Assembly: GCF_018977255.1 (NCBI RefSeq)
Contig: NW_024704742.1
Location: 72,294,001-72,358,000 of the forward strand
Length of the DNA stretch: 64,000 bases
From: Callorhinchus milii
Taxonomy: Eukaryota
Direction: 5' to 3'
Below, piece after piece: positions 18,586 to 45,993 of this stretch (positions are counted from its first letter, which is position 1; the number at the start of each line of letters is the position of its first letter). The position numbers and the translations under genes are program-made. The notes beneath the pieces are model-generated. The model made no database searches and was not told the origin of the DNA. It saw only the letters and a list, made by a program, of their open reading frames with translations.

Positions 18586-20434
18586 CATATCAAATGCAAG
18601 GATTATTATTATAATAATGTCTCTCTATTGACTCTATCAAAACCCCTCCCAATTTTTAAAGACCTCGATCAGGTCATCCCTCAATCTTCTTTGTTCCAGC
18701 AAAAAAGTCCCAGCTCCTCTAGTGCCGAAACGTCTAGATGAAGAATGCTATATGAATATAAGTTGTTATTGTTCTCTATGAAGCACTTTGAGATGTTCTA
18801 ATGTTATAGGCACTGGATCAAATTATTCAACATGTGTCCCCGAGAGCCTGAGTGTCTCATCCATGCTCACATGAATACATCAATGCACAACAGCACCATC
18901 CGTGTAATTTTGGACAACAGCGCCCTCTCTGTGTAACTAGACAACAGCGCCCTGCCTATGTGCTTCGGTGTGTAACCAGAAGGTTGCAGAGTTAGGGGGG
19001 ACCAATACTATGGAGCGCTTTGAAGATGAACAACGCCCAGTGTGCAACTATTTCGGGGGGAGAAGGGAGGTAATCAGGAAGCAGGGCTGATCAGCAAACT
19101 GGAAATTAAGGCTCCTCCAGGGCAAAGTGATCATAATATGATGGAATTTAGCATTAAATTAGAGAGAGAAATAGTTAAGTCCAAAGCAAAGGTTTTAAAT
19201 TTAAGTAGAGCCAATTTTGCTGGTATGAGAGAGGATTTAGCCAAAATAAACTGAGAAATTAGACTTAAGGGTTTGACAGTAGACCAGCAATGGCAGACGT
19301 TTAAGGAGATAGTGCAAAATTCCCAGCGAGCACGTATTCCTTTGAGGAATGCCACGGGAAAGGTGGCCCAACCGTGGCTAACTAGAGCAGTTAGGGAAAG
19401 TATAACGTTAAAGGAAGAAGCCTATAAAACAGCTAAGATGAGTAGTAAACCCGAGGATTGGGAGAACTTTAGGGATCAACAAAGGAGAACCAAAAAAGTG
19501 ATTAAGAGGGAGAAAATGGAATATGAGGGCAAACTAGTGAAGAACATAAAGACAGACTGCAAGAGTTTTTATAAATATATAAAGAGGAAGAGGTAGTCAA
19601 GGGTATATGTGGGTCAGCTACAGGCAGAGACGGGGGGAATTATAGTAGGGGTCAAAGACTTTGCTACTGTCTTCACCTTAGAAGACACTGAAAACCTACC
19701 AAGAATAGAGGGGAACCAAGAAGACAATGTTAGCGAGCAACTTGGAGGAATTAATATTAGTAAAGAAATGGTTTTAGGTAAATTATCAGGTCTTAAAACT
19801 GATAAATCTCCTGGACCTGATGGCCTACATCCTAGGGTTTTAAAAGAGGTGGCTACTGAGATAGTGGATGGCTTGTCTTTGATCTTCCAAAATTCTCTGG
19901 ATTCTGGAACGGTTCCCATTGATTGGAAGATTGCAAACGTGACACCACTATTTAAGAAGGGTGGGAGAGAAAAGATGGGGAACTATAGACCAGTTAGTCT
20001 GACATCAGTGGTAGGGAAAATTCTTGAGTCCTTAATTAAAGATGTCGTTATGGGATTCCTGGAAGACCATAACAAGATTAGGCAGAGTCAACATGGCTTT
20101 ACAAAAGGGAAGTCATGCTTAACTAATCTTTTAGAGTTTTTTGAAGATGTATCCAGCAGGTTAGATAGGGGGAACCAGTAGATGTAGTATATTTAGATTT
20201 TAAAAAGGCATTTGACAAAGTGCCACACAAAAGGCTATTGCACAAGGTTAAGGCCCACGGGATTAATGGGAACATATTAGCATGGATTGAAGAGTGGCTA
20301 ACGGGTAGAAAACAGAGAGTAGGGATAAACGGGTCATTCTCGAATTGGCAGGATGTGACTAGTGGAGTGCCACAAGGATCAGTGCTTGGGCCTCAGCTAT
20401 TTACAATCTACATCAATGATCTAGACGAGGACAT

Positions 20435-20761
20435 TAATAATAATAATAATAATAATCCTTGCATTTGATATAGCGCTTTTCACGTCGGGAGGACGTCCCA
20501 AAGCGCTTCACAGAGCACACTGTAAAGTGAATTGACTGTATATTTGTGGGCAAACGCGGCAGCCAATTGCGCACAGCAATGTCCCACAAACAGTTGTAGA
20601 TTGAAAATGACTAATTTTTTTATTATTGTTTTGGGTTTTGGAGGGATTATTATTAGGCGTGTGGAGTAAGGAAACTTGCCCAAGGTTTCGCACTGCCTGG
20701 AATTGAACTCAGGTCTCTCGCTTGCAAAGCGAGTGCTCTAACCACTGAGCTACAGGACTCC
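20435..20761 (-). mobile_element. tRNA/Deu-domain SINE, young short form, inside CR1
   Basis: Full head GGAGTCCTGTAGCTCAGTGGTTAGAGC through to the (TTA)n tail; splits the CR1 RT between INDLDEDI and the FADD motif. Confidence 0.93.
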
Positions 20762-21292
20762 ACAAATTGAATGTAACGTATCTAAATTCGCGGATGACAC
20801 TAAACTAGGTGGGAGAGTAAGCTCTGAGGATGATGCAAAAAGATTGCAATGGGATATAGATAGGCAAGGGGAGTGGGCGAGTAGGTGGCAGATGGAATTT
20901 AATGTGGGGAAGTGTGAAGTTATTCACCTAGGTAGAAAAAATAGAAAAACAGGTTATTTTCTAGAGGGGGAGAGCTTAGATAGTGTTAGTGTTCAGAGGG
21001 ATTTGGGTGTCCTTGTACACCACTCTCAAAAAGTTAGTTTGCAGGTGCAGCAAGCAACTAAGAAGGCGAACGGCATGTTAGCGTTCATTGCAAAAGGTTT
21101 AGAGTTCAAGAGTAGGGAAGTCTTGCTGCAACTGTATAGAGCCTTGGTGAGACCGCACCTAGAGTATTGTGTGCAGTTTTGGTCTCCGTATTTAAAAAGG
21201 ACATACTTGCCCTAGAGGGGGTGCAGCGTAGATTCACTCGGTTAGTTCCTGGGATGAGGGGACTGACCTATGAGGATAGGCTGAATAAACTA

Positions 21293-24535: not shown

Positions 24536-26633
24536 CTTGGGGGGTCACTGGGTGGTTTTCCCCTTGCTGTGTGCAGAAAGCCGCCAGCCTCATGATACAC
24601 AACCTAATCTACTGGTGAGAATTGGGTTAGTTGTGCATTCACTGCTGCGCGTGCACCATCCGGAACCGATAAGGAATCCACATTCTAATTGCGTTCCACT
24701 CCACAATCTTCCCTGTCACTCCTCCAATCCACTTTGAAATGTTCTGTTCTCAGGCTCAGTTGCCACATATCAAGTGTGCTACCACATGTGACAAGCATCA
24801 CATGCTCCAATAACTGTGTGAGTGTTTAACTCTTTCAGTAACAATCCTTGGGCTGACCTTATTCTCGATTCACTGACCAATGGGAAAGATTTCACTCTCA
24901 ATCCTCTGGAGACCTGTGAGTATTTTGAAGCTCTTTGGTCTCATCCCCTCAGGACCTGCTCTGACCCACTGGAAGTTTCCCAGAGGCTGGGTGGCAGGCC
25001 ACACCGCCACTCTGCTCCTGTGGGAACAAGTAGCCCACCAATCATGTGTTTGGATAAACCAATGGTGGCCAACATTTTTGTTCGGCCAAATAAATACATT
25101 TTTCTTTATTTCATGTTCAGTGGATTGATGTTGGGGGCTGGTGTTGGAGGGTTGGTGTTTTTTTTGGGGGGCAGCCGGTGTTTGGTGGGGGCTAGTGTAG
25201 GAGGGGCTGGTGTTAGTGTTGCTGGTGTTCAAGGCTGTTGTGGGGAGGGCTTGTGTTGGGGGGCTGGTGTTGGGGCTGGTGTTGGGGGCTGTTGGGTGAC
25301 GGGCTGGTATTGGGGGTGCTGTGTTGTGGGGCTGGTGTTTGGGGGGTGGGGGCTGATATTCAGGGCTAGCATTGAGTGTTCACTATGGGCCACTTTTTGG
25401 GAGTCAAGAAGTGGCCCGTTTAACTCCAGCTGCAGTCTAGGCCAGTCTGCCTCAAATCAATGCCTTATTTTCAGTAGCTACTGAGCAGTGAAATACCCAT
25501 GATGCGGCCATAAATTATGAAAAATTCAATAAAGAAAAATGCATTTGGTTGCCTGACCAAATAGGTTATCCACCCCTGGTGTAAAGTGTCCACTGATGGC
25601 AATCTCAAGCCTGTGTAATGTTATTGGGTTGAAGACCAATCCAATCCTGTGTACACACAGACACACTGGGGTAACTGTTGGGAGTCTAACCAAATAATAC
25701 CACATAGTTTGCCATTGAGAGAACTGTCTGGCAAGCTTTCCCACTGCTTGTCCAGCTAGGACCACCCTGCCCTTTAGGACTTTGGTTTGCAGGGTTAATA
25801 GGAGCTGAGTGGGAGGATTCCCTGAGTAACTGATCTGCCTCTCCAAATTCTGCCAATGAGCCAGACTCGGCTGTGCTGTCATCAGCAGGGCCCTGGAATA
25901 CTGTGAACCCGCCTGGCTCAGGAACTAGACTGGAGACTGTCACAGACTGTGGGCTCGTCCTTAGATTCTGCGGCCAGAAACCTCACCTTCGAGCCAGTTC
26001 ATCTGCGAGGGGAATCCGCTTGCCTCCCACCAGGAGGATATTTTAGTACACATTGTAAAACTAATATTAATAATATGTTCATTTGTTATAGCATTTCATC
26101 ACACCGCTGAGACGTCTCAGAGCATTTTCAGGATATTCTATTAAGTGCAGTGACCGTGTATTTTATAGATGAACATTGCAATGTCCCAAAACAGGCACAG
26201 AGTAACTGATCCATTTTATATGGGGGGTTGTTGGTCAGGACACCAAGACAAATTCCTTTCTCTTTTCTCTTTCGCTGCTGGATCTTTAAAGTCCACCTGG
26301 ACAGAAACTGATAGGACCTTAGTTTAACGTCTCACATTGACCCCATTTCATTAAACGTTAGTTGCCACTGAACATAGCACAACACGGCTTGTATTTATCC
26401 TCCAGTCCTCTGTGATCTTAATGTTGATTTGACTGATTTCTCATTGAGGTGCCTTAGCTGCAATTGACTTATTGCTGGCCTTGAATAGAGCCAGTGACCT
26501 GCATCGGCAGTCAGAATGCCATGTTCCCCCTTGTCACTGGAGCGGGGCTGAGCAGATCCCAGCTGAGTCTTGGCTGCTCGGTTACAAATCTGTCTCACGT
26601 CTCCCTGACTGCACACAGGAGCCGCTCACCAGC

Positions 26634-26679
26634 ATGTGCGGGTCTCTGAGCTTCCTCTCCGTGTGCTGCTGTAGAGCAG
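26634..26679 (+). CDS. APOL: ApoL predicted coding exon 1 (MCGSLSFLSVCCCRA)
   Basis: ATG with A at -3 (ACCAGCATG), consensus donor CAG|GTGAGT, phase 1 matching the downstream exons. Confidence 0.65.
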
Positions 26680-29600
26680 GTGAGTGCAACAACGACGACG
26701 ACTGCTGTTTATATAGCGTCTTTCACGTGGGGCAGCGTCTCGGAGCACTTAACAAGTGACACTGAGCCGTGAGCAGGCGACCATAAGCACGGTCGAAGAG
26801 GAAGGTCTACTGTGATCTGAAAAAGGTGCGGAGGGGGCGCGGGGGAGAGACAGAGGGATTGGGGTAGAGTGTTCCAAAGCTTTCTGAGTGTAGTGGCTGA
26901 ATGGTGGAAGCAGAGTGGACGAAGGACAAACAGGATGCCAGAGCTGGTGAGCGGAGACGACTGAATCGGGAGTAAGCAGGTCGAGGAGGTAGCCTTACTC
27001 TCTACCTCCTCCTCGCTCCCTCCCTTCCCTCCCCTCATCCTGACCAGTTCCCCCCTGCTCGGGTCCCGACCCAACTGTCCAGCGCCTTGGGATGTCTTCC
27101 CGATGTGAAAGGCGCTCTATAAATGCAATCTTGTTGTTGTTGTTGGGAGGTGCTAGGGCATTCGGGGATTTGTGGACTGTGAGAATCTTGATTATTGTTA
27201 TTATTATCTTGAAGTTAGGGGAGGGACCAGGACATGGGGTGGGGGTGGTAGGAAGTGGTTTGTTGGATCACCTGCCCTGATTTGATGTGTGCTGTCAGTG
27301 TGTTTCGGGACATGGTGTGACTGTGAGTGACTTTATTCTCTTGTATCTGACAGTCCAGATGGCGCAGCACCAGCCTGGAGGTCAGCCAGGTGCCCACCAC
27401 CCTCACCAGCTCCCCTACCCTCACGCTCCAGGTAATTATCAACTACATGCTTTACACATTCCCGTGTTATAGCCACATGCTCAGCATGTTCCTGTGTAAT
27501 CCCAATTCCTTATCATGTCACACACAGACACAGATGTACACCTCTATTCATTCAGAAACACGCAACAACAACAACATGCATTTATGAAGTGCCCATCAGA
27601 GCTCAATTAACAATTGTGGGGGGGGCAGTGGCGGCAATGGACCATTATTGACGCCACTTTCCAGTCGCTGCTATCCATGCAGCCTCTCTTCCCCACACGT
27701 TGTCTCTCGTGAGAGACAACATGGGGAGTGAGGGGAAGAGAGGCTGAATGAGGATATGAGGCATGAGGGAGATGATAATTGCTCTCAGAGAATGAGAGAA
27801 AATGGACCATCACACCTTCAGTGAACAAGGAGGCTGTGAACCAGTCATCCACCTCCCCAATGAAGGGGCACTGATGGGGGCAATGGCCCACCCCAGGCCA
27901 TGGCCAGTGTTCAGCATTGAGGGGGTGATGCAATGAAGCCATGTTTTCAGATAGTGGGGCTGACTTTCTAGTCCTCCCCACCGCCCTGGCGACCAGTCTG
28001 TTAAAGCTTTCCCGTGGGGATTGGCAGTGGCCCTCAGGCCAAGGCTTACTTGGCTCATTGGTTAACCTGGCCCTGACACTCAGCACACGGGCAACATCTT
28101 GATGCGCTTATCAGATCCTGGGCTGAGCTGGGGTGAGGTGACTGGAGGCACGGTCGAAGACATACCAGCACATTAATGTGCAACCTGACACCTCTCTCAC
28201 ACTCACTATGAGGAGTGATATGGTGACTGTTGATTGTGGACAGTGTGGTGGTTGTAAATACAGTGTGGTGTTTGTGTATATGGTGTGGTGTTTGTTTTTG
28301 TGGTGTGGTGTTTGTGGTGTGGTGTTTGTGGTGTGGTGTTTGTGGTGTGGTGTTTGTGGTGTGGTGTTTGTGGTGTGGTGATTGTATATAGTGTGTTGAT
28401 TGTGTATATAGTGTGGTGATTACATATGTGGTGTGGTGATTGTGTATACCGTGTGGTGATTGTGTATACCGTGTGGTGATTGTGTATATACGGTGTGGTG
28501 ATTGTGTATACGGTGTGGTGATTGTGTATACGGTGTGGTGATTGTGTATACCGTGTGGTGATTGTGTATACCGTGTGGTGATTGTGTATACGGTGTGGTG
28601 ATTGTGTATACCGTGTGGTGATTGTGTATACGGTGCGGTGATTGTGTGTATACGGTGTGGTGATTGTGTATATACGGTGTGGTGATTGTGTGTATACCGT
28701 GTGGTGATTGTGTGTATACCGTGTGGTGAATTGTGTATAGGGTGTGGTGAATGTGCATTCAGTGTAGTGATTGTGTACATGGTGCGGTGGTTGTGTATAC
28801 AGTACGGTGATTGTGTATAGTGTGGTGATTGTGTATATAATATGGTGGTTATCTACATGGTGTAGTGATTGTGTATACAGTGTGGTGGTTGTGTGTACAG
28901 TTTGGTGGTTGTGTACATGGTGTGGTGGTTGTGTGTATAGTGTGGTGGTTGTGTGTACAGTGTGGTGGTTGTGTACATGGTGTGATGGTTGTGTGTACAA
29001 TGTGGGACAAGAGACAACTTTCTTCAGCTCAACGTGCGTAAAACTGAGGCCCTCCTGATTGGCTCACGTCAGCGCTTCCGCACCTCAGGCGCTGACAGCA
29101 TCAGCATCCAAGGCTGCACTCTCCACCTCTCAAAGCCATCAGGAACCTCGGGGTTCTGTTCGACCCTGAGCTGTCCTTTCTCCCTCATATCCGCGCCACA
29201 ACTGGCACCGCCTTCCATCACCTCCGGAACATCGCCAGACTACGGCACTACCTCACCCCTCACGCGGCTGAAACTCTGGTCCACGCCTTTATCACCTCCG
29301 TTCCTCTGGCTCTGGTCTGCTCCACATCCACCGCCCCAACCGCCCTACCATCGGTGGCCGGGCCTTCAGCCTCTCAGCCTCTAGGCTCTGGAACTCTATC
29401 CACAGTGCCTTCGCCGCCTCCTCCCTTTCCTCCTTCAAGGCCGGTCTCAAGACCTTTCTCTTTGACTGTGCCTTCAGCTCCCCTCTCGCTCCCTCCTCGC
29501 TCCCTCCCTTCCCTCCCCTCACCCTGACCATTTCCCCCCTCCTCGGGTCCTGACCCAATTGTACAGCACCTTGGGATGTCCTCCCGATGTGAAAGGCGCT

Positions 29601-32600
29601 CTATAAATGGAATCTTGTTGTTGTTGTATAAGGGATGTGTGCTGATAGAGTGTTTTGGGACATGGTGTGACAATGAATGACTTTATTCTCTTGTATTTGA
29701 CAGTACTGGTGGTGCAGCATCAGCCTGGAGGCCAGGCAGGCTCCCACCACCCTCACCAGCTCCCCCACCCCTACACAACAGGTAAATGTCAGCCACATGC
29801 TCCACATTTGTCAGATAATAAATGACCAACTAGTGACGATTCTCCTCGGAGAGGAGGTAAGAGGGATCTCTTTGGATCTGGAACTTAGAATTGACGGTCT
29901 CCAGTCCAGTTCCTGAGCCAGGTGGGTCCGCAGTATTCCAGGGCACTGCTGATGACAGCACAGCCCAGCCTGGCTCATTGGCAGGACCTGCAAGGGCAGA
30001 CCAGTCACTGGGGGCAGGGAGTTATCCCACTCAGCTCCTGTTAACCCTACAAGCCAAAGCCCCAATGGCTATGGTGGTCTTAGCTGGACAAGCAGCAGAA
30101 AAACTCATCAGACAGCACTCTCAATGCCAAATTATGCGGTTTTAGCTGGTTAGACTCCAGCAGTTACCCCAACACACACTCTGGGGTCCCCAAACCTCAG
30201 CTCTTGCCAACCTGTGCCTAATACTTTGTGGAATTAGGTAAGCAGGAGGTATCCCTTCAGGTAAAGAGTTCACATTCAATTCCACTAAATATCTCAGAAA
30301 TTTCCATGTGTAGGTGGGATGCATGGAACTTTGTTTGGTTTGGATACTTTGAAGCATGGTGATGGGTTTCTGCACGTGACTGCCTCCATCCCACCATCGG
30401 TGACTGAGCCGCTGTTTTGAGCTCTCTTTCTATACCTCTCTTTCTCATCCTCTTCTCTATCTGCATTTAAATACTGCCTAAAACAATATTTTTTCATCCC
30501 TTCACCTTGCCCCCACTGTTGCCTCCTTCAAGGCCCATCTCAAGACCTTCATTTTTGACCTCACCTTCTGTCACCCTGCTACCCCCACACTCCCCACCCT
30601 CCACCCCACCTGATCCCAACCCCAAGCTCAGGTGCAAATCCTTGATTATCCAGCGAGTTGGGACGTCCTCCTGACGTGAATAGTGCTGCATAAATGTAAT
30701 TTGTTGCTGTTCTTTGACCATGCTCATGGTCATCCGTCAGTCCCTTTCTTTCCTTGCTCAGTGCTGTGAGGTCTGAGTGACCTTGTCTCCCTTGGTCTCA
30801 GGGTAGTGTGGAAGTGACCTAGGATGCTCAGAGATTATAGAAGATTGTGTCTCATTACTTATTTGTCTCATTCCTTTACCAGATGAAGAGCTCAGTGCAG
30901 ATGATCTGTGGTACGTACCTGCAGATGTGCATCAGTTGCTCAATGAATGCCATTCAGCCCATCGTGCCTCTGCTGGCGCACTGATACAGCTATCTATCCT
31001 GTATTCCTATTGTCATTGTCTGATATTGAATGGGTTTGTCTGATTTTGAATGAATTCTCCTCTCTTTTGAATTCTCTATGTGTCTGATTTGAATGAACTC
31101 TTCTCTCTGACCAGCTGACCTCTCCACATGGCAAATGAAACATTTAGTGCCCCAAGAGTCTCAGCGCACCAACAACCCACGGTCACCATCTCAGTGCACG
31201 GCTCTGAGGTGGTTCTGCAGTGTGCTCAGTGACTGAGATAAAGGGACACAAGCCCAAGACTTCCTTAGGGTAGAGTGATGGGGGATTGGTGGGTATGAGC
31301 TGGGTCAGGGTAGGGTGGGTTCAGGTCAGGGTGGGTTGGTGTCAGGTTGGGTTGAAGGTGGGTTGGGGGCCAGGAGGCCATGCAAATATGTACACACCTC
31401 TGTCTGGTTAGATATTCTGAAGCATGGTGATGGATTTTCACAATTGGCACCTGACTGACAAGCATCCACCCCCACAAAAAAGATGCATTTCTTGTGGGTA
31501 AGTAGGTCTCCAGGGGATGGGGTGTAGTGTCTGTGAGAGATATGTTTGGATACCCATTTTGATGGAGGTCCAGCCTGTCTCATCACCCATGAGGCTTGGT
31601 GATGTAGTCATGTCCTCAACCCTGCTGTAGCTACAATGCCCTGAGGGTCAGCTGTTCAGTTACTGTTTGGTGGGTACTTGTACGTTTGATACGTTCAGAA
31701 AGCTAAAAGCTCCCTGCATATAATGACAGGGAACCATTGAAATCTGAGCTGGAAAAGAGAGCTGGAGATGGCCAGTGTTTTCTCCAGATGTTTCCTGAGC
31801 GAAGAAAATGGATGAGCAACTCCATCCAGGAACTGCGGGAAATTGCTGATGATATCGATCAGTATCACAGAGATGCCACCATAGCAAGTGTGGCCGGATC
31901 ATCCGCCAGTGCTGTGGGAGGCATCCTAACTGCTGCAGGAATAATCGCTGCCCCCTTCACATCGGGCACCTCATTAGTGCTGTCAGGGGTGGGGGCTGGA
32001 GTGGGCATTGCTGGCAGTGCCACCAATCTTACAGCTGGGGTCACTGAGACTGTGGCACGATCTAACAAACAGCAGCGAGTCGATGAGATTCTAGAAGAAT
32101 ACAACAAGGGCTGTAAAGAAATGTCAGCATGTTTAAAAGAGGTCTGTGGGGTCATCAAGCTGTGCTGTGAGGGCCTCGGAGCAGAAGTTGCATGGCAGCA
32201 GAGCGGTGAAGGAAAGCCTGAGTGTGTGAGTGCAGTCTGCAGGCAGGTTACAGGGAGGGAGACAGGAGGTTTAGATTACAAGCAAGAACAGAGCTTTGCA
32301 CTGACCCACTCCATCAAGCAGCTGGCAGCCCTGAGCCGGGAGATCCCTAATGCCAGCCATATAAAGGAGTCTGTGAGAATCAACGGCCTGATCTCGGGAT
32401 CTCTCCCACTGCTCTCCCGGGTTGTGTCGGGTGTCCTCTCGGCACTTTCCGTGGTGCTGGATGTCTTCTCCATAATGAAAGACTCCATTGACCTCAGCAA
32501 AGGAAGCAAGACTCGAGCTGCTCAAACCGTACGGGCCACCGCGCAGAGCATGGAACACGAGTTAAATGCGTATGAAGGCATTTATATATTTCTGAACAAA

Positions 32601-32618
32601 GTTGTGAAGCTGGATTGA
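26634..32618 (+). CDS. APOL: Apolipoprotein L family protein, 5 coding exons (26634-26679, 27354-27431, 29704-29781, 30883-30910, 31730-32618), 372 aa predicted
   Basis: The last exon encodes the ApoL signature FLQMFP...IQELREIADDIDQYHRDATIASVAGSSASAVGGILTAAGIIAAPFTSGTSLVLSGVGAGVGIAG and C-terminal VVLDVFSIMKDSIDLSKGSKTRAAQTVR. All introns are GT-AG. Phases 1/1/1/2 join into one open frame of 46+78+78+28+889=1119 nt. Family call is about 0.93; exact upstream exon use is less certain. Confidence 0.85.
27354..27431 (+). CDS. APOL: ApoL predicted exon 2, 78 nt, symmetric phase 1 (VQMAQHQPGGQPGAHHPHQLPYPHAP)
   Basis: Acceptor CTTTATTCTCTTGTATCTGACAG, donor CAG|GTAATT, open in the required frame; paralog of exon 3. 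Confidence 0.7.
28230..29000. repeat. Intronic minisatellite (~12-bp GTGTGGTGTTTG and ~20-22-bp GTGTGGTGATTGTGTATACG units)
   Basis: Directly visible; it is the source of the His/Thr-rich spurious ORFs. Confidence 0.95.
29010..29625 (+). mobile_element. Young L2 3' fragment with an internal deletion at ~29297
   Basis: [20 protein letters not shown]. The sequence jumps from TTTATCACCTC to CGTTCCTCTGG. (TTG)n tail. Confidence 0.9.
29704..29781 (+). CDS. APOL: ApoL predicted exon 3, 78 nt, symmetric phase 1 (VLVVQHQPGGQAGSHHPHQLPHPYTT)
   Basis: Acceptor CTTTATTCTCTTGTATTTGACAG, donor CAG|GTAAAT; 63/78 nt identical to exon 2 with no indels. Confidence 0.7.
30883..30910 (+). CDS. APOL: ApoL predicted exon 4, 28-nt microexon (DEELSADDLW)
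   Basis: Strong acceptor TTTGTCTCATTCCTTTACCAG, donor TG|GTACGT. Converts phase 1 to phase 2, exactly as the last exon needs. Confidence 0.72.
31730..32618 (+). CDS. APOL: ApoL last coding exon (ApoL domain)
   Basis: Uninterrupted ORF (track 31737-32618). Acceptor GACAG at 31725-31729, with an in-frame stop just upstream at 31704-31706. A large terminal exon is typical of APOL genes. Confidence 0.93.
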
Positions 32619-33108
32619 GTAATGTGTTGCAATTTACATGGCAATTGGTGTTGGAATCAAATCATAGGATTTCCCATTGAATGTCACAAAATGTTGTAGT
32701 GAACTGTGATTGAAACTCCAGGAGTGTCTCTGCTCACCCAAATACCCTCTGCTGTTCCTGACAGTGGGGAAAAACTTGCAAGACTCGTGAAATAATTTGT
32801 AATTCGTGAAATCCGCAGCTAATGCATGTCACACTGTGCTGGGGATTGGGCGGCTCGTTTAATCACAGTCTGGCTTCACTGAAGTCAATACTGAGGTTGG
32901 TTTCCAAGTGGCAAACCAGACACACATCCAGGCACAGGAATTGCTGCTTAACAAATCCTTTGTGAATCTCACAACTTACACTTCCCTGTTGATTGTTCCA
33001 TTCTCCTTCCGCGACCACCTCCATGGCACAGTATTTCCATTCTTACCTTCCCAACCTCCTCCCTGGGAGCAGGGAATCTGACCACTGTTGTGGGCTCACA
33101 AGTGAATT

Positions 33109-33114
33109 ATTAAA
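33109..33114 (+). terminator. Candidate polyadenylation signal ATTAAA for ApoL
   Basis: First AATAAA/ATTAAA-type hexamer I found downstream of the stop; motif only. Confidence 0.3.
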
Positions 33115-35174
33115 ATATGATCAGAAGTAATTATTACAAAAAAATTCAGTAAGGTATATGTTTATGCTCATTAGCGAGTGTCGAGGTGACCTGCAGAATT
33201 ACAACCTTGATTATAAAATGACATGTTAATTAAATTGGGCTGAGTTTCAGAGCTTCTGTCTAAGCCTAACAGGTGTCACCAGATAGCTGCTATAACACTA
33301 GATAGTATGGTGTGGGAAGATATCAATATGTCAAATATGTCAAAGTGTGGAACATGGCCTGGTGTAGGCCACAGTTGAATGTGCCGCAGGCTCCAATTCA
33401 GCTCTGTTTACACTGTTCAAATACAATTTAGTTAACTACTCTACATTCTAGTTTTAAATGATACAAACACAATCCAAAGTCAAAGACAAAATCAATTCTG
33501 TTTGCAAATTGCCTGAGAGCGAGAAAACTCACTATATACTGTCCTTGGGAGTTTCCATGATCAGGCTTTATAAACAAAAGCTTTGCTTTAATCATCTGCT
33601 TACTCTATGCCACTCTGACTCACAGACTCAAGGCTTGGACAGAATATGCATTGGGGGAACTGCTGGAGTTTAACCAGCTAAAACCACAGTTTACCATTGA
33701 CAGCACTGTCTGCCAACAGTGATGAGCCAGGCTAGCTGGGCTGTTATTAGCAGTGCCCCAGAGTACTGCACACCCGCTTGGCTCAGCCACAGAGGATCGA
33801 CTTGATTCTGACATTCTGTTGCCAGCTATTGGAGTTCAGCTCCAAGGAGACCTGACGTGTGTGAGGGATCAAATACCAGCGTTATAATAACCGGGTTACC
33901 AGGATACATTGGGAGCATCATAATAATAATAATAATAATCCTTGCATTTGATATAGCGCTTTTCACATCTTCTAGACATCTCAAAGCGCTTCACAGAATA
34001 GACTGTAAAGTGAATTGGCTGTATAATTGTGGAGCTAGATGGTTACATGAGTGAATGGTTCAGGATGTACAGGAGAGACCCTATCCAATCTGATAATATG
34101 CAACAGTCTGGGGATAGAGAGTAGGTTATGTGATAAAAGCACCTGGCAGATACTGAGCACAATATGATTGAGATTAATTTCCGAGAGGGAGCAACACAGA
34201 CTCCAGGACTCCATCTGGAGCAATAAAACCGTAAAAATCCCTCATTCATTTCCTGGCTATTTGGGGGACAATACTGTATGCAAATTTGCTGCTACTTTTG
34301 CATATAAAATACACAGTCAGTACACAAAGCCCTGTGAGTTTCTTCAAGATGTCCTCCGAATGTGAAAGATAGTCTAACAAATGCAAGAATTGTTATTATG
34401 TTATTATCTCACCAGCCAACCAACTATCCAAATCATCCCTTTCCTACCTCCAGTAATCTGTCAAGTTCCTTTTTGAAACTTTCTGTAGTTCCTTCTGTAA
34501 CTGCCTGTGCTGATAGTTTGTTCATGGCATTCAAGAGAGAATTTAAAATGTAAGGTTGTGTGGAGCTGCAGAAAACAAAATGAAATATAATCTTGATTTG
34601 GAAACCGGGTTGTGCTTTACTCGAGTCTGTCTGATTCTTTTTTTAATAAGAATTGATGAAATCTGTTTGGTTGGTCAGAAGACGTGTGGCGAGGCTCTCG
34701 TATGAAAGGCTGCGTGCCAATCAGGAATAGAATCGAACCACAGCAAACACTGATAGGTTACAGCAACTGAAAGAGTTCAAGGAACCTGTTCAGTCACAGT
34801 CTCACCAGTCAACAGGGCTCAGGCTACAGGCACATTATTTAATGGTTCAACTCTCGACTTTAACAGTTGTGTCTCAGCGCCCGGATCAGGTTAATTATCT
34901 CAAGTGAAATTCTAAATGATGTTGAGGATCAGTGAGATTGTGGATGCAGGTACACAGAATTCTAGCAGTGTGAGTGTAGGTGGTAAAAAGACCATCGAAA
35001 GGCAGATTTTCAGAATTCTGAAAGGTTTTGGGAGTCGAAATTGTTAAAAATTATTGCTGCTGGATGGTGAATGGATAAAAAGAGGGAATGAGCTCAGTGT
35101 TGTCTCTCGAAGAGTTAATGGGAGGTTAGAAAAAAATCCTCAGAGGATCATTATAGCTTGGAATTATCAAAGAA

Positions 35175-35921: not shown

Positions 35922-38582
35922 CAACAACAACAACAAGATTCTATTTATAGAGCGCCTTTCACATCGGGAGGACGTCCCAAGGCGCTGTACAGTTGGGTCA
36001 GGATCCGAGCAGGGGGAAATGGTCAGGGTGAGGGGAGGGAAGGGAGGGGGCGATGAGGGGGTAGAGAGTCGAGAGGGGAGCTGAAGGCTCGGTCAAAGAG
36101 AAAGGTCTTGAGATCGGCCTTGAAGGAGGAAAGGGAGGAAGCGGCGAAGGCACTGGGGGATAGAGTTCCAGAGCCTCGGGGCTGAGAGGCTGAAGGCCCG
36201 GCCACCGATGGTAGGGCGGTTGGGGCGGGGGATGTGGAGCAGACCGGAGCCAGAGGAACGGAGGGTACGGGCAGGTAAGTAGGGGGATAGTAGGTTGGAG
36301 AGGTAGGAGGGAGCGAGGCCGTGAATGGCCTTGTAGGTGAGGATGAGGATCTTGAATTCGATCCTCTGGGGGATGGGGAGCCAGTGGAGGCGAGCGAGGG
36401 TGGGAGTGATGTGGTCGCGAAGCCTGGTGCGGGACAGTACACGAGCTGCAGAGTTCTGAATGACCTGCAGTGTGGAGGGAGGTGCCGGGAAGGCCGGCGA
36501 GGAGAGAGTTCCCATAGTCCAGCCTTGAGGTGATAAAGGCGTGGACCAGAGTTTCAGCAGCGTGAGGGGTGAGGTAGTGCCGTAGTCTGGCGATGTTCCG
36601 GAGGTGATGGAAGGCGGTGCCAGTTGTGGCGCGGATATGAGGGAGAAAGGACAGCTCAGGGTCGAACAGAACCCGAGGTTCCTGATGGCTTTGAGAGGTG
36701 GAGAGTGCAGCCTTGGATGCTGATGCTGTCAGCGCCTGAGGTGCGGAGGCGCTGACGTGAGCCAATCAGGAGGGCCTCAGTTTTACGCACGTTGAGCTGA
36801 AGAAAGTTGTCTCGTCCAGGACTCGATGTCGGACAGGCAGCTGTCAGGACATCGGTGGTCGTGGAGTTGAGGGTAGAGGAGGAAAGGTAGAGTTGGGTGT
36901 CATCCGCATACATGTGGAAGTTAACCCCATGTCTGCGGATGATGTCACCAAGGGGGAGCATATAGAGGGTGAAGAGGAGGGGACCGAGGACAGAGCCCTG
37001 AGGGACACCGCACGAGACAGTGCGGGGGCTGGAGGAAAAGCCGTTTGTGGAAACAAAATGAAGACGGTGGGAGAGGTACGACCTAAACCACTCAAGGACA
37101 GGGCCTTGAAGGTTGAGGTGGGAGGACAAGCGGTGGAGGAGGATAGCGTGGTCGACCGTATCGAATGCTGCCGATAGGTCGAGGAGGACGAGGAGGCAGA
37201 GGGAGCCCTGGTCACAGATGGTCAAGATGTCATTGGTGACCTTGACCAGGGCAGTTTCTGTGCTATGGGCAGCACGGAAACCCGACTGAAGGGGTTCGAA
37301 TAAAGAATGGGTGGAGAGGAAAGAGCGCAGCTGGGAGGCGACAACTCTTTCAAGGACCTTGGACAGGAAGGGGAGGTTGGAGATGGGCCGGTAGCTTGAT
37401 AGCTGCGACGCATCAAGGGAGGGTTTTTTCAAAGTGGGAGTGATGGTGGCAGTTTTTAAGGGAATGGGAACAGAGCCAGAGGAGAGGGACAGGTTGATGA
37501 TGTCTGTGATATGTGGGGCAAGGAGGTGGAGCTGAGAGATAAGGAGTGGAGTGGGGATGGGGTCAAGGGAGCAGGTGGTGGGTTTCAGGGATAGGATGAG
37601 TTTGGTGACAGAGGGTGGGGAAACGGGTACGAAGGTGTGTAGGGGAGGATGGGTAGGAGTCGGAGTGTGGGAGGGAGGGGTGGGTGGATGTTGGAGGGGA
37701 AGTGACTGCGTAGCGGATTCCCTTGATTTTGGATTCAAGGAAATCCAGCATCTCCTCGCAGTGAAGGTTGGAGGAGATGACCTGCGCGGGGTGGTGGGGG
37801 ACGGAGGAGTCGGGATGTGGTAGAAAACAGAAGCCTGGGGTTGTTCTTCGCCTCCAGGATTATCCTGGAGTAGAAGGACGACTTGGCCGAGGCTAGAGTG
37901 GAGCGGTAGATTTTGAGGAGGTCCAGCCAGATTTGTCGGTGGACCGTTAGGCCAGATTTGAGGCAGGTGCGTTCAGCGGCCCGCACCTGGCTCTTCAGTG
38001 AGCGGAGGTGGGTGGTGAACCAGGGGGAGGAGCGAGAGTAGGAGACAGTACAGGAGGTGATGAGGGCAAGAGTGTCGAGTGTGGAGGAGAGGGTGTTGTG
38101 GAGAAGGGTGTGAAGAGAAGAGGGGTCAGTGAGGGTTGAAGGCCAGAGGGAGAGGAGTTCAGAGGACTCCAAGGCAGCGGTTAGGGATTGTGGGGGTAAC
38201 TTCTTCCAGGGGCGGTAGAAGATGGTGGTGGGTCTGGTGGAGGTGGGGAGGGGGTGGAGGTGGTGAAGGAGATGAAGTGGTGATCGGAGACGGCCTTGTC
38301 GGTAATGGTGACATCCGAGACACTGAGGTGATCACCAAGTCGAGTCGCCAAGGTGGCCGTGACTGTGAATGGGGGAGTTGATGTGTAAGGAGAGGTTGAG
38401 TGAGGAGAGCAGGGAAGAGAAGTCCGAGGAGATGGAGCAGGAGGGGGTGAAGTGCAGGTTGAAGTCGCCCAGGATGATGAGGCGATCAGAGCAGAGGCAG
38501 AGAGATGTAAGAAGTGTCGAAATATCAGAGATGAAGGTGGGAGAGGTTTTAGGAGGCCGGTAGAGGAGGAGGATTTGCAGAA
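35922..38582 (-). mobile_element. L2 LINE, longest copy (partial APE endonuclease, RT, 3' end), with several frameshifts
   Basis: LYRPPK...LIILGDFNLH (APE). [64 protein letters not shown] and YADDTQLY (RT). (TTG)n tail. Confidence 0.96.
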
Positions 38583-45405: not shown

Positions 45406-45993
45406 ATGAAGGCTTTTGTACAACCAATTGGAGCCTCCTCCAGAATACCTTACAATTTGGCGAGCCAGCCACGAGAGATCACATTCATGAGGATGCTATC
45501 TAACCCAATGTTTTCCTTCAATGTGAAAATCCACCATGGAGACAAAAGTGGGTCCAACTTGAACATTACCTTTCTCCAAGGTGGGCCACTGAACTTGACC
45601 TGTTCAGCAACTGTAAATAACTCAAAACCATTTTTTATAATAATAAATGGAACCAGTTGGCAATGTTACTGGTTCTCTGACGGGAGTATGTCAGGATACG
45701 AGAACATAACCTGTGTACGAAATGATCAAGGCATGGGATGGAATTGGGGAGTTCTCTACTGTGCCAAACTGGGACCTGATGACTCCCTGAGGATAACTTG
45801 GCAACTCCTGTTCAATTACATCCAAACAACACATTCAGGATTCCAAATTGATCCATATTCAGCCAATGTTACTGTGAATATTAAGGAAAAAGAAGAAGTC
45901 AACAAAACAACTGAATCTGAATGCTTGGAGTCAACACCAGGGCTTGAGAATGGATTAATGCTGTGTTGGATACTCTTTGTTGGATGCCCTTGA
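45406..45993 (+). CDS. Intronless ORF encoding a putative Ig-like glycoprotein (195 aa), possibly viral or retroelement derived
   Basis: GGPLNLTCS (B strand), GVLYCAKLGPDDS (E-F), terminal beta strand NVTVNI, 7 N-x-S/T sequons and a short hydrophobic C-terminus. No clear signal peptide. Confidence 0.45.
   Translation: MKAFVQPIGASSRIPYNLASQPREITFMRMLSNPMFSFNVKIHHGDKSGSNLNITFLQGGPLNLTCSATVNNSKPFFIIINGTSWQCYWFSDGSMSGYENITCVRNDQGMGWNWGVLYCAKLGPDDSLRITWQLLFNYIQTTHSGFQIDPYSANVTVNIKEKEEVNKTTESECLESTPGLENGLMLCWILFVGCP

Follow-up and report, generated by a model that had tools for sequence, protein, structure and literature searches.

A Callorhinchus milii ApoL-family gene with a duplicated, in-frame His-rich exon of putative pH- or metal-related function

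ApoL proteins kill parasites and bacteria by membrane insertion, which in the best-studied member is triggered by acid pH. In a 64,000-nt stretch of the Callorhinchus milii (elephant shark) genome (contig NW_024704742.1, positions 72,294,001 to 72,358,000; the window) an ApoL domain is preceded by two similar His/Pro/Gln-rich segments. This raises the question whether these segments are exons, how they arose, and whether they could render an ApoL protein sensitive to pH or metal. The locus stands alone at 72.3 Mb, and the main ApoL cluster lies far off at 8.4-8.7 Mb of the same contig.

The locus holds a transcribed ApoL-family gene. Its five exons (26634-26679, 27354-27431, 29704-29781, 30883-30910 and 31730-32618; Table 1) are preceded by AG and followed by GT, barring the ATG start and the stop, and when joined comprise 1119 nt, i.e. 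372 codons plus a stop codon. The original prediction had proposed this five-exon product, and it is borne out: residues 16-372 equal those of RefSeq XP_042200096.1 (P0017), and its splice sites and 372-aa frame are sound. The joined sequence also confirms the claim that proteins with two, one or no repeat exon are all in frame, the latter two comprising 346 and 320 aa with a single terminal stop. The last exon alone matches Pfam PF05461 (E 4.2e-42, 145.1 bits versus a cut-off of 25.9). P0017 matches the same family at 146.6 bits, and ApoL is the only domain that Pfam finds in it, with no cystatin domains. Junctions 29781/30883 and 30910/31730 are based on RefSeq models, homology and arithmetic on the size of a contig from sequencing run X1. 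Given this size (2343 nt) and a dispersed repeat that begins at ~33625-33640, the 3' UTR would run downstream to ~33688; neither AATAAA nor ATTAAA was found in 33401-33900.

Table 1. Positions of exons, alternative starts and repeats at the ApoL locus, numbered within the window
Feature	Position	Strand	Description
Exon 1	26480..26679	+	5' UTR (at least from 26480) and CDS 26634-26679; ends in phase 1; donor CAG/gtgagt
Alternative first coding exon of XP_042200096.1, MVEAEWTKDKQDARA	26901..26946	+	Inside intron 1 of the contig-supported model
Copy 1 of duplicated unit	27284..27456	+	Exon 2 with 70 nt of intron before it and 25 nt after it
Exon 2	27354..27431	+	First 78-nt phase 1-1 exon; 26-residue His/Pro/Gln-rich unit; AG/GT-bounded; present in XP_042200096.1 (P0017)
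Minisatellite	28215..29013	.	~20-nt units, in the intron between the repeat exons
5'-truncated retroelement fragment	28990..29627	+	Ends 6 nt before copy 2
Copy 2 of duplicated unit	29634..29806	+	Surrounds exon 3; only other copy in the genome
Exon 3	29704..29781	+	Paralogue of exon 2, likewise a 78-nt phase 1-1 exon; present in XP_042200096.1 (P0017)
Alternative start exon of older RefSeq model XP_007906783.1 (310 aa, no repeats)	30720..30735	+	Located on the sequence
Exon 4	30883..30910	+	28 nt; acidic linker DEELSADDLW (read across both junctions); AG/GT-bounded; in RefSeq models P0001 and P0017
Exon 5, coding part	31730..32618	+	ApoL domain to stop; 100% identical to P0001 and P0017

Transcript support comes from one contig of one run, X1, which is presumed to be RNA. 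In this intron-less contig positions 26480-26676 and 27351-27431 are adjacent with 0 mismatches; past 27431 come the six letters with which exon 3 opens (TACTGG), and the contig then matches again from 27360 onward. This supports the junction 26679/27354 of the original prediction, which was read from adjacent contig coordinates and is absent among the 15 of 65 joints listed. The contig also keeps the repeats, instead of the direct and exclusive joining of the first exon to 30883 that the prediction had named as the contrary outcome; assembled contigs drop rare splice variants. The genome holds no intron-less copy of the gene: neither exon 1 nor the unit nor the ApoL exon was found at any other locus. 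The contig comparison covered 26000-28200 (exons 1 and 2) in runs X1-X4. Run X2, also presumed RNA, has no cover on exons 1 and 2, and runs X3 and X4 give colinear, DNA-like contigs over 26000-28200; these three runs say nothing on expression.

Exons 2 and 3 lie within a direct repeat, in which 27284-27456 and 29634-29806 align over 173 nt with 83% identity (by BLAST 168 nt, 84%, E 6e-43). The original prediction had recognised the intronic repeat itself and put it at ~190-220 bp, slightly wider than measured; its statement that the two 78-nt segments agree at 63/78 positions free of indels was exact. Both units are symmetric phase 1-1 exons between introns of equal phase, so that the gain or skipping of a copy leaves the frame intact. 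The two units are the result of a tandem duplication, in which a genomic stretch of 173 bp or more was copied together with the one exon that it held and the splice sites of this exon. Since then the copies have diverged by ~17-19%, and the retroelement and the minisatellite have enlarged the intron between them. Positions 27008-27143, which precede copy 1, share 93% identity with the retroelement tail (29492-29627), and in all four sequencing runs they show an extreme word depth. The sequence ahead of copy 2 had no homology to 27144-27283. ORFs of this retroelement family were found as well.

Because the locus is full of retroelement fragments, the two segments might be taken for chance AG/GT-bounded open stretches in a repeated piece of intron or a transposon, and not for exons. 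The predicted openness in phase 1 is correct and is weak evidence alone, because neither 78-nt segment has a stop in any of the three frames, so that openness proves little by itself. Such an artefact is scarcely credible and already contradicted by the spliced X1 contig (run presumed RNA), which contains both segments, by RefSeq XP_042200096.1, which includes both, and by the copy number of the unit. In the 991-Mb genome the unit gives two matches at the DNA level and two at the protein level, all at this locus, counts that are lower bounds. With only two matches it is therefore not an interspersed repeat; a high copy number genome-wide, the other contrary outcome that had been named in advance, was not found. 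A high-copy interspersed repeat or a transposon-derived exon was rejected on the same two copies, both at the locus.

We then consider the ApoL part of the protein and its relatives. The comparison includes 11 apolipoprotein L3-like or L6-like proteins of elasmobranchs (P0004-P0014; Carcharodon, Heterodontus, Scyliorhinus, Chiloscyllium, Mustelus, Heptranchias, Pristiophorus and skates), which are 37-47% identical over 89-100% of the ApoL exon. The alignment with these 11 chondrichthyan proteins has 48 invariant columns, mostly in residues 111-201 and 297-365, and the Gly/Ala-rich hydrophobic hairpin, the SKGSK motif and, across the exon 4/5 junction, EEL..W..LK.ELEKR are common to them and the C. 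milii protein. Helices are predicted with low confidence at 88-134, 174-235, 302-321 and 337-368. Thus the traits of the ApoL family, a Gly/Ala-rich hydrophobic helix-loop-helix and a C-terminal amphipathic helix, are recognisable from the 11-relative alignment and the low-confidence model. In contrast, the His-rich units and the Cys-rich leader are missing in 11/11 of these relatives, whose N-termini are polar or acidic and of variable length.

A broader search for relatives of the module gave the same picture. No credible relative was found among 1.84 billion representative proteins (exhaustive phmmer) or among the 11 elasmobranch proteins, in line with the remark in the original prediction that this architecture was not known from other ApoLs. 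The phmmer matches P0018, a repetitive protein of 5404 aa, and P0019, a protein of 745 aa with 52-residue repeats, were rejected as repeat-summed artefacts, since pairwise BLASTP gave E values of 0.02 and 0.36 as for summed low-complexity matches. A word-index search with residues 14-70 among proteins of 204-651 aa yielded three candidates, none of which scored, and in the ESM Atlas no feature match was usable and all structural rows had TM <0.4. We regard the gene, whose model is confirmed, as a member of a known family with an N-terminal variation specific to its lineage.

To what extent the module has been under constraint can be read from its two copies. The exons differ by 5 synonymous and 9 non-synonymous changes, and the resulting dN/dS of ~0.5 is not significantly below 1 (Fisher p 0.30). 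Identity between the copies is 62/70 (89%) in the upstream flank, 81% in the exon and 19/25 in the downstream flank. The differences concentrate at the edges of the exon (10/27 positions versus 5/51 in the core, p 0.006, for a core defined post hoc). As originally predicted, the 17-residue core is kept with several synonymous changes, i.e. 3/5 of its nucleotide changes.

These data bear on the view that the 78-nt exon is a neutral passenger, a lineage-specific exonised piece of intron that was later duplicated and adds nothing specific to ApoL function. Its phase 1-1 structure and the disordered, low-complexity sequence that it encodes would, under this view, explain why the mRNA tolerates it. 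A dN/dS indistinguishable from 1 and an exon no better conserved than its upstream intron flank are consistent with this, as are the open frames, for which nothing special is needed, the failure of genome and protein searches to find a homolog of the module, and the elasmobranch relatives, which work without it and vary widely at their N-termini. The sparing of the core, with most of its few changes synonymous, argues against a passenger, as do the perfect splice sites that both copies retain despite their ~17-19% divergence and the presence of both units in the assembled X1 contig (run presumed RNA). On balance we consider a neutral passenger doubtful, if a serious possibility.

The composition of the module would fit a different role. 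Its 52 residues include 10 His, 10 Pro, 9 Gln and 6 Gly, and 5 acidic residues come after it. Assuming a His pKa of 6.3, the estimated charge of the N-terminal segment changes from -4.3 at pH 7.4 to +3.8 at pH 5.5. In the predicted structure of P0017 residues 19-72 have no secondary structure and a pLDDT <50. This low confidence is weak evidence for disorder, because the model is poor overall (12-row alignment, mean pLDDT 48.3, pTM 0.44); we infer from it that the 52-residue module is probably an intrinsically disordered, lineage-specific spacer. Its most probable function would be to render the association of the ApoL domain with membranes, or its insertion, more acid-dependent, and perhaps dependent on Zn2+ or Cu2+ as well. 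A tunable pH or metal sensor, or a docking region, had been suggested as putative roles in the original prediction.

The proposed switch would resemble the His-rich region of histidine-rich glycoprotein (HRG), which gains membrane and ligand binding on protonation. Its GHHPH repeats are described to bind Zn2+/Cu2+ and, at low pH, to become positively charged and active against fungal membranes, and human HRG is described to carry 11-12 GHHPH-like pentapeptides in tandem (PMC5372734, PMC2537934). Both proteins have the HHPH motif in a Pro-rich, His-rich and probably unstructured stretch. The C. milii module, however, has only two such motifs, 26 residues apart, one per unit and each unit in its own exon, and shows no array of many pentapeptides, no cystatin domains and no detectable homology to HRG. 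The likeness would thus be one of functional analogy and not of family membership.

Taken as a whole, the reading that we favour, tentatively and with slightly less than even confidence, is a transcribed ApoL gene with a duplicated unit that encodes a disordered His-rich spacer likely to tune pH- or metal-dependent membrane insertion. The conservation of the exon (81%), no better than that of the upstream flank (89%), and the p of 0.30 for dN/dS speak against it.

The start of the protein differs between our model and the annotation. RefSeq XP_042200096.1 ('apolipoprotein L6-like', 372 aa) already has both repeat exons in public annotation, and the two-repeat protein is therefore not a new sequence; in the literature no description of this gene or architecture was found. 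This automatic model is identical to the predicted product over residues 16-372 (357/357), a stretch that spans the two 26-residue units and the acidic linker as well as the ApoL domain; its first 15 residues differ and come from another exon (26901-26946). The X1 contig (run presumed RNA) joins across 26901-26946 and omits this exon, which favours the upstream exon 1 (26634-26679).

Translation could nevertheless begin in the RefSeq exon, with exon 1 as a minor or non-coding alternative. This exon is used by XP_042200096.1 and has a good donor (CTG/gtgagc) in the same phase, and exon 1 is burdened with two upstream ATGs in its 5' UTR (26516 and 26521), one of which opens an ORF overlapping the start. 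They may lower the use of ATG 26634, and an in-frame ATG at 27359 could yield a leaderless protein. However, the sole transcript contig seen joins 26676/26679 directly to 27351/27354, and a genome search finds exon 1 once, but at least 15 matches, spread over several contigs, to the dispersed repeat that contains 26901-26946. We therefore regard a start in the RefSeq exon as distinctly improbable; the current RefSeq start codon is probably wrong or merely alternative.

Exon 1 encodes a 15-residue hydrophobic, Cys-rich leader (MCGSLSFLSVCCCRA). The mean Kyte-Doolittle hydropathy of its residues 2-13 is 1.8, versus -1.3 for the RefSeq alternative start, and by hydropathy and sequence inspection only, C at -3 and A at -1 precede the exon boundary. 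The leader may be a short signal peptide, or it may anchor the protein to membranes through palmitoylation. A phase-1 leader exon followed by 1-1 exons is typical of signal-peptide exons and extracellular modules, and this gene has that order of phases. Human APOL1 and the C. milii protein both have an ApoL domain (PF05461) with an N-terminal hydrophobic leader before it; the C. milii leader, unlike the APOL1 signal peptide, has only 15 residues and a putative targeting role. We know of no His/Pro/Gln-rich repeat in APOL1.

The protein might thus be a secreted ApoL, its leader cleaved after ...CRA, on a secretory route like that of primate APOL1 and with the His-rich module as an extracellular metal- or glycosaminoglycan-dependent docking region. 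The hydropathy, the small residues at -3 and -1 and the exon phases would fit, as would the signal peptide of APOL1, in which acid-pH membrane insertion and a pH-gated cation channel are also described (PMC8446801). According to that source, two regions within the ApoL part of APOL1 account for the pH dependence, a membrane-insertion domain and the C-terminal zipper (PMC8446801). The C. milii leader is, however, at the short limit for a signal peptide, has no basic n-region and carries three serines in its hydrophobic core. Its CCC cluster is equally compatible with S-palmitoylation, and the elasmobranch relatives have polar N-termini. We consider secretion unlikely.

A bolder proposal, to which we assign a very low probability, is that a secreted or lumenal ApoL, equipped with a His switch tunable by copy number, arose independently in a chimaera, in parallel to APOL1 of primates. 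The leader would direct the protein to the secretory or endocytic route, where 10 His beside an acidic patch would reverse charge between pH 7.4 and 5.5 and gate pore insertion in acidified compartments, and exon duplication or skipping would set the pH threshold.

At present the architecture stands as a lineage-specific decoration of a known family, in which the role of the His-rich module is putative. The contig-supported start gives the protein a hydrophobic, Cys-rich leader, which alters its predicted location. An ApoL of an early-branching vertebrate with a twice-repeated, in-frame His-rich exon is a natural construct for asking whether an external pH or metal sensor can tune an ApoL pore, and the comparison of proteins with 0, 1 and 2 units would be a clean one.

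The N-terminus of this transcribed ApoL gene is assembled from small exons. Spliced together, the five exons that the original prediction had derived from sequence alone comprise 1119 nt, i.e. 372 codons and a single terminal stop, and the AG/GT boundaries are confirmed; putative versions with one (346 aa) or none (320 aa) of the repeat exons would keep the frame. As all three frames are open in each of the two 78-nt segments, an open frame alone provides little proof. The last exon encodes an ApoL domain (Pfam PF05461, 145 bits with a cut-off of 25.9, E 4.2e-42). An identical protein in the collection is XP_007906783.1 (310 aa, Callorhinchus milii), whose 90% cluster also contains XP_042200096.1 ('apolipoprotein L6-like', 372 aa). 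In the latter, the two 26-residue units and the acidic linker precede the ApoL domain, and residues 16-372 are identical to the predicted product, the difference being confined to the first 15 residues. Thus, the two-repeat architecture is already present in public automatic annotation; a literature search found no description of it.

Further support for the gene model comes from sequencing-run contigs, which were compared with positions 26000-28200, a range covering repeat exon 2 and the two candidates for the first exon, at a likeness threshold of 80 chosen so that exon 3 (81% like exon 2) would appear. The first record of run X1, presumed to be RNA (a guess), is a 2343-nt contig with a depth of 10.3. 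Its letters 2147-2343 correspond to 26480-26676 and 2066-2146 to 27351-27431, in each case without mismatches. As these pieces adjoin, the contig joins exon 1 to exon 2, and owing to a CAG on both sides a cut at 26679/27354 is equally good. Past 27431 the X1 record of the same depth reads TACTGG and then returns to 27360 onward. TACTGG represents the first letters of exon 3 (29704-29709), the remainder of which is 81% like exon 2, so that exon 3 directly follows exon 2 in the contig. Since no intron-less copy of the gene was found in the genome, mRNA is the best explanation of the joined form; contigs of runs X3 and X4 are colinear over the introns and DNA-like. The remaining 1987 nt of the X1 contig correspond in length to exon 4 (28 nt) and a further 1959 nt counted from 31730. 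The end would then fall at ~33688, some 50 nt into a dispersed repeat beginning at ~33625-33640, where an assembly graph could plausibly break. These lengths agree with exons 4 and 5 but are no proof of them.

The X1 contig also bears on the start codon, as it spans intron 1 and joins the predicted first exon to exon 2 across the RefSeq start exon (26901-26946). The latter lies within a dispersed repeat that has 15 or more matches, spread over several contigs; exon 1 is single-copy in the genome. The evidence favours the predicted start over the RefSeq start, and the annotated codon is probably wrong or merely alternative. Exon 1 encodes a 15-residue leader, MCGSLSFLSVCCCRA, whose residues 2-13 have a mean hydropathy of 1.8, compared to -1.3 for the RefSeq alternative. 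Judged from its sequence, the leader may represent a short signal peptide, as the phase-1 exon boundary falls exactly where small residues occupy positions -3 and -1; phase-1 boundaries are associated with signal peptides. An equally good reading is a palmitoylated Cys cluster. The RNA-supported 5' UTR in the 5' part of the X1 contig contains upstream ATGs at 26516 and 26521; one upstream ORF has 11 codons, and that from the second ATG has 42 and extends across the main start (26634). A leaderless protein could arise from an in-frame ATG in exon 2.

Exons 2 and 3 are the products of tandem duplication of a single phase 1-1 exon. They are identical at 63/78 nt with no indel and lie within a direct repeat (27284-27456 and 29634-29806, 173 nt, 83%; by BLAST 168 nt, 84%, E 6e-43) whose likeness is far above chance. 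Homology beyond 173 bp was looked for and none further was found; the duplicated segment may at first have been larger, as the 5'-side homology ends at the site of a retroelement in copy 2. The original prediction would have failed if the unit were a high-copy interspersed repeat. Searches of the 991-Mb genome with 27270-27490 at the DNA level and with 25 full codons at the protein level (E up to 10) yielded the two local copies only, each count being a lower bound, which rules out a transposon or a genome-wide interspersed repeat.

Coordinates of the gene, of elements between its repeat exons and of related places in the ApoL cluster
Feature	Coordinates	Strand	Remarks
Exon 1, coding part	26634-26679	+	begins at ATG start; GT after
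Exon 2 (repeat)	27354-27431	+	AG before, GT after; 78 nt
Exon 3 (repeat)	29704-29781	+	AG before, GT after; 78 nt
Exon 4	30883-30910	+	28 nt; AG before, GT after; acidic linker
Exon 5, coding part	31730-32618	+	AG before; runs to stop; ApoL domain
Minisatellite	28215-29013		~0.8 kb, ~20-nt units, GGTGTGGTGATTGTGTATAC-like; intron between repeat exons
Retroelement fragment, 5'-truncated	28990-29627		directly after minisatellite; ends 6 nt before copy 2
Cluster counterparts of 33450-33853 (G000:C1, same genome and contig)	G000:C1:8416985-8417389; G000:C1:8588487-8588891		81% over 404 nt

The introns around the repeat exons are full of retroelement pieces, and a retroelement tail at 27008-27143, over which word depth is extreme in all runs compared, is 93% identical to 29492-29627. 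Elsewhere in the window LINE-like reverse-transcriptase ORFs were found at 36656-37972 (minus strand, Pfam RVT_1, E 1.5e-32) and 19597-21215 (plus strand, RVT_1, E 1.7e-6); tails of the same family are scattered over the window, including both introns beside the repeat exons. A 195-aa open frame at 45406-45993 (plus strand) has several N-x-S/T sites and a Cys/Trp spacing reminiscent of an Ig-like exon, with no Pfam match at E 0.01 or better.

Of the 31 ApoL matches in the genome, all but the gene studied, which is solitary at 72.3 Mb, are grouped within 8.36-8.73 Mb on the same contig. The segment 33450-33853, downstream of the coding region and probably 3' UTR, resembles two places in the cluster. 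This likeness suggests that the solitary gene and the cluster members have a segmental origin in common, reaching beyond the coding exon. The UniProt/Ensembl-type models A0A4W3JIR6 and A0A4W3IRU0 (31730-33226) have internal parts of the ApoL exon removed, the former with a different C-terminus encoded at 33191-33226, which points either to splicing inside the last exon and the 3' UTR or to artefacts of the models.

The view of the original prediction that this architecture is not known from other ApoLs fits the searches made. None of the 11 elasmobranch ApoL relatives, which share 37-47% identity in the ApoL exon, has the module formed by both units (residues 16-67), and their N-termini are polar and variable. 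Nothing scored in a word-index search with residues 14-70, and an Atlas search with the module gave no usable match. Exhaustive phmmer against 1.84 billion representative proteins returned two highly repetitive proteins, which with pairwise BLASTP E values of 0.02 and 0.36 were taken as summed weak matches and rejected as homologs. Across these searches the module is thus without a credible relative. The gene belongs to a known family, of which it represents a lineage-specific N-terminal variant already in automatic annotation.

The main rival to a functional role, and still a plausible one, is that the module is a functionless, tolerated insertion. The two copies differ by 5 synonymous and 9 non-synonymous changes (dN/dS ~0.5, not significantly below 1, p 0.30), and the exon identity of 81% is no better than that of the upstream intron flank (62/70), which, however, holds the branch site and polypyrimidine tract. 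Changes affect 5/51 positions in a 17-residue core and 10/27 at the edges (p 0.006); as the core was defined after seeing the data, this is a hint, not proof, of constraint.

We favour a role as a charge-switch spacer. The 52 residues of the module include 10 His, 10 Pro, 9 Gln and 6 Gly, with one HHPH motif per unit. In a structure model residues 19-72 are without secondary structure (pLDDT <50), which weakly supports disorder given the low quality of the model overall (mean pLDDT 48). The computed charge of residues 16-77 changes from ~-4.3 at pH 7.4 to +3.8 at pH 5.5, assuming a His pKa of 6.3. According to PMC8446801, APOL1 needs acid pH for membrane insertion and then forms pH-gated cation channels. 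GHHPH repeats of histidine-rich glycoprotein are described in PMC5372734 and PMC2537934 as binding Zn2+ and Cu2+ and, when protonated, as gaining positive charge, membrane binding and antifungal activity. Membership of this type was rejected for the module, which lacks cystatin domains as well as homology and carries just two motifs. Based on the charge shift, the acid insertion of APOL1 and the behaviour of the GHHPH repeats, the module would act as a disordered spacer through which membrane engagement becomes more strongly dependent on pH and perhaps also on metal.
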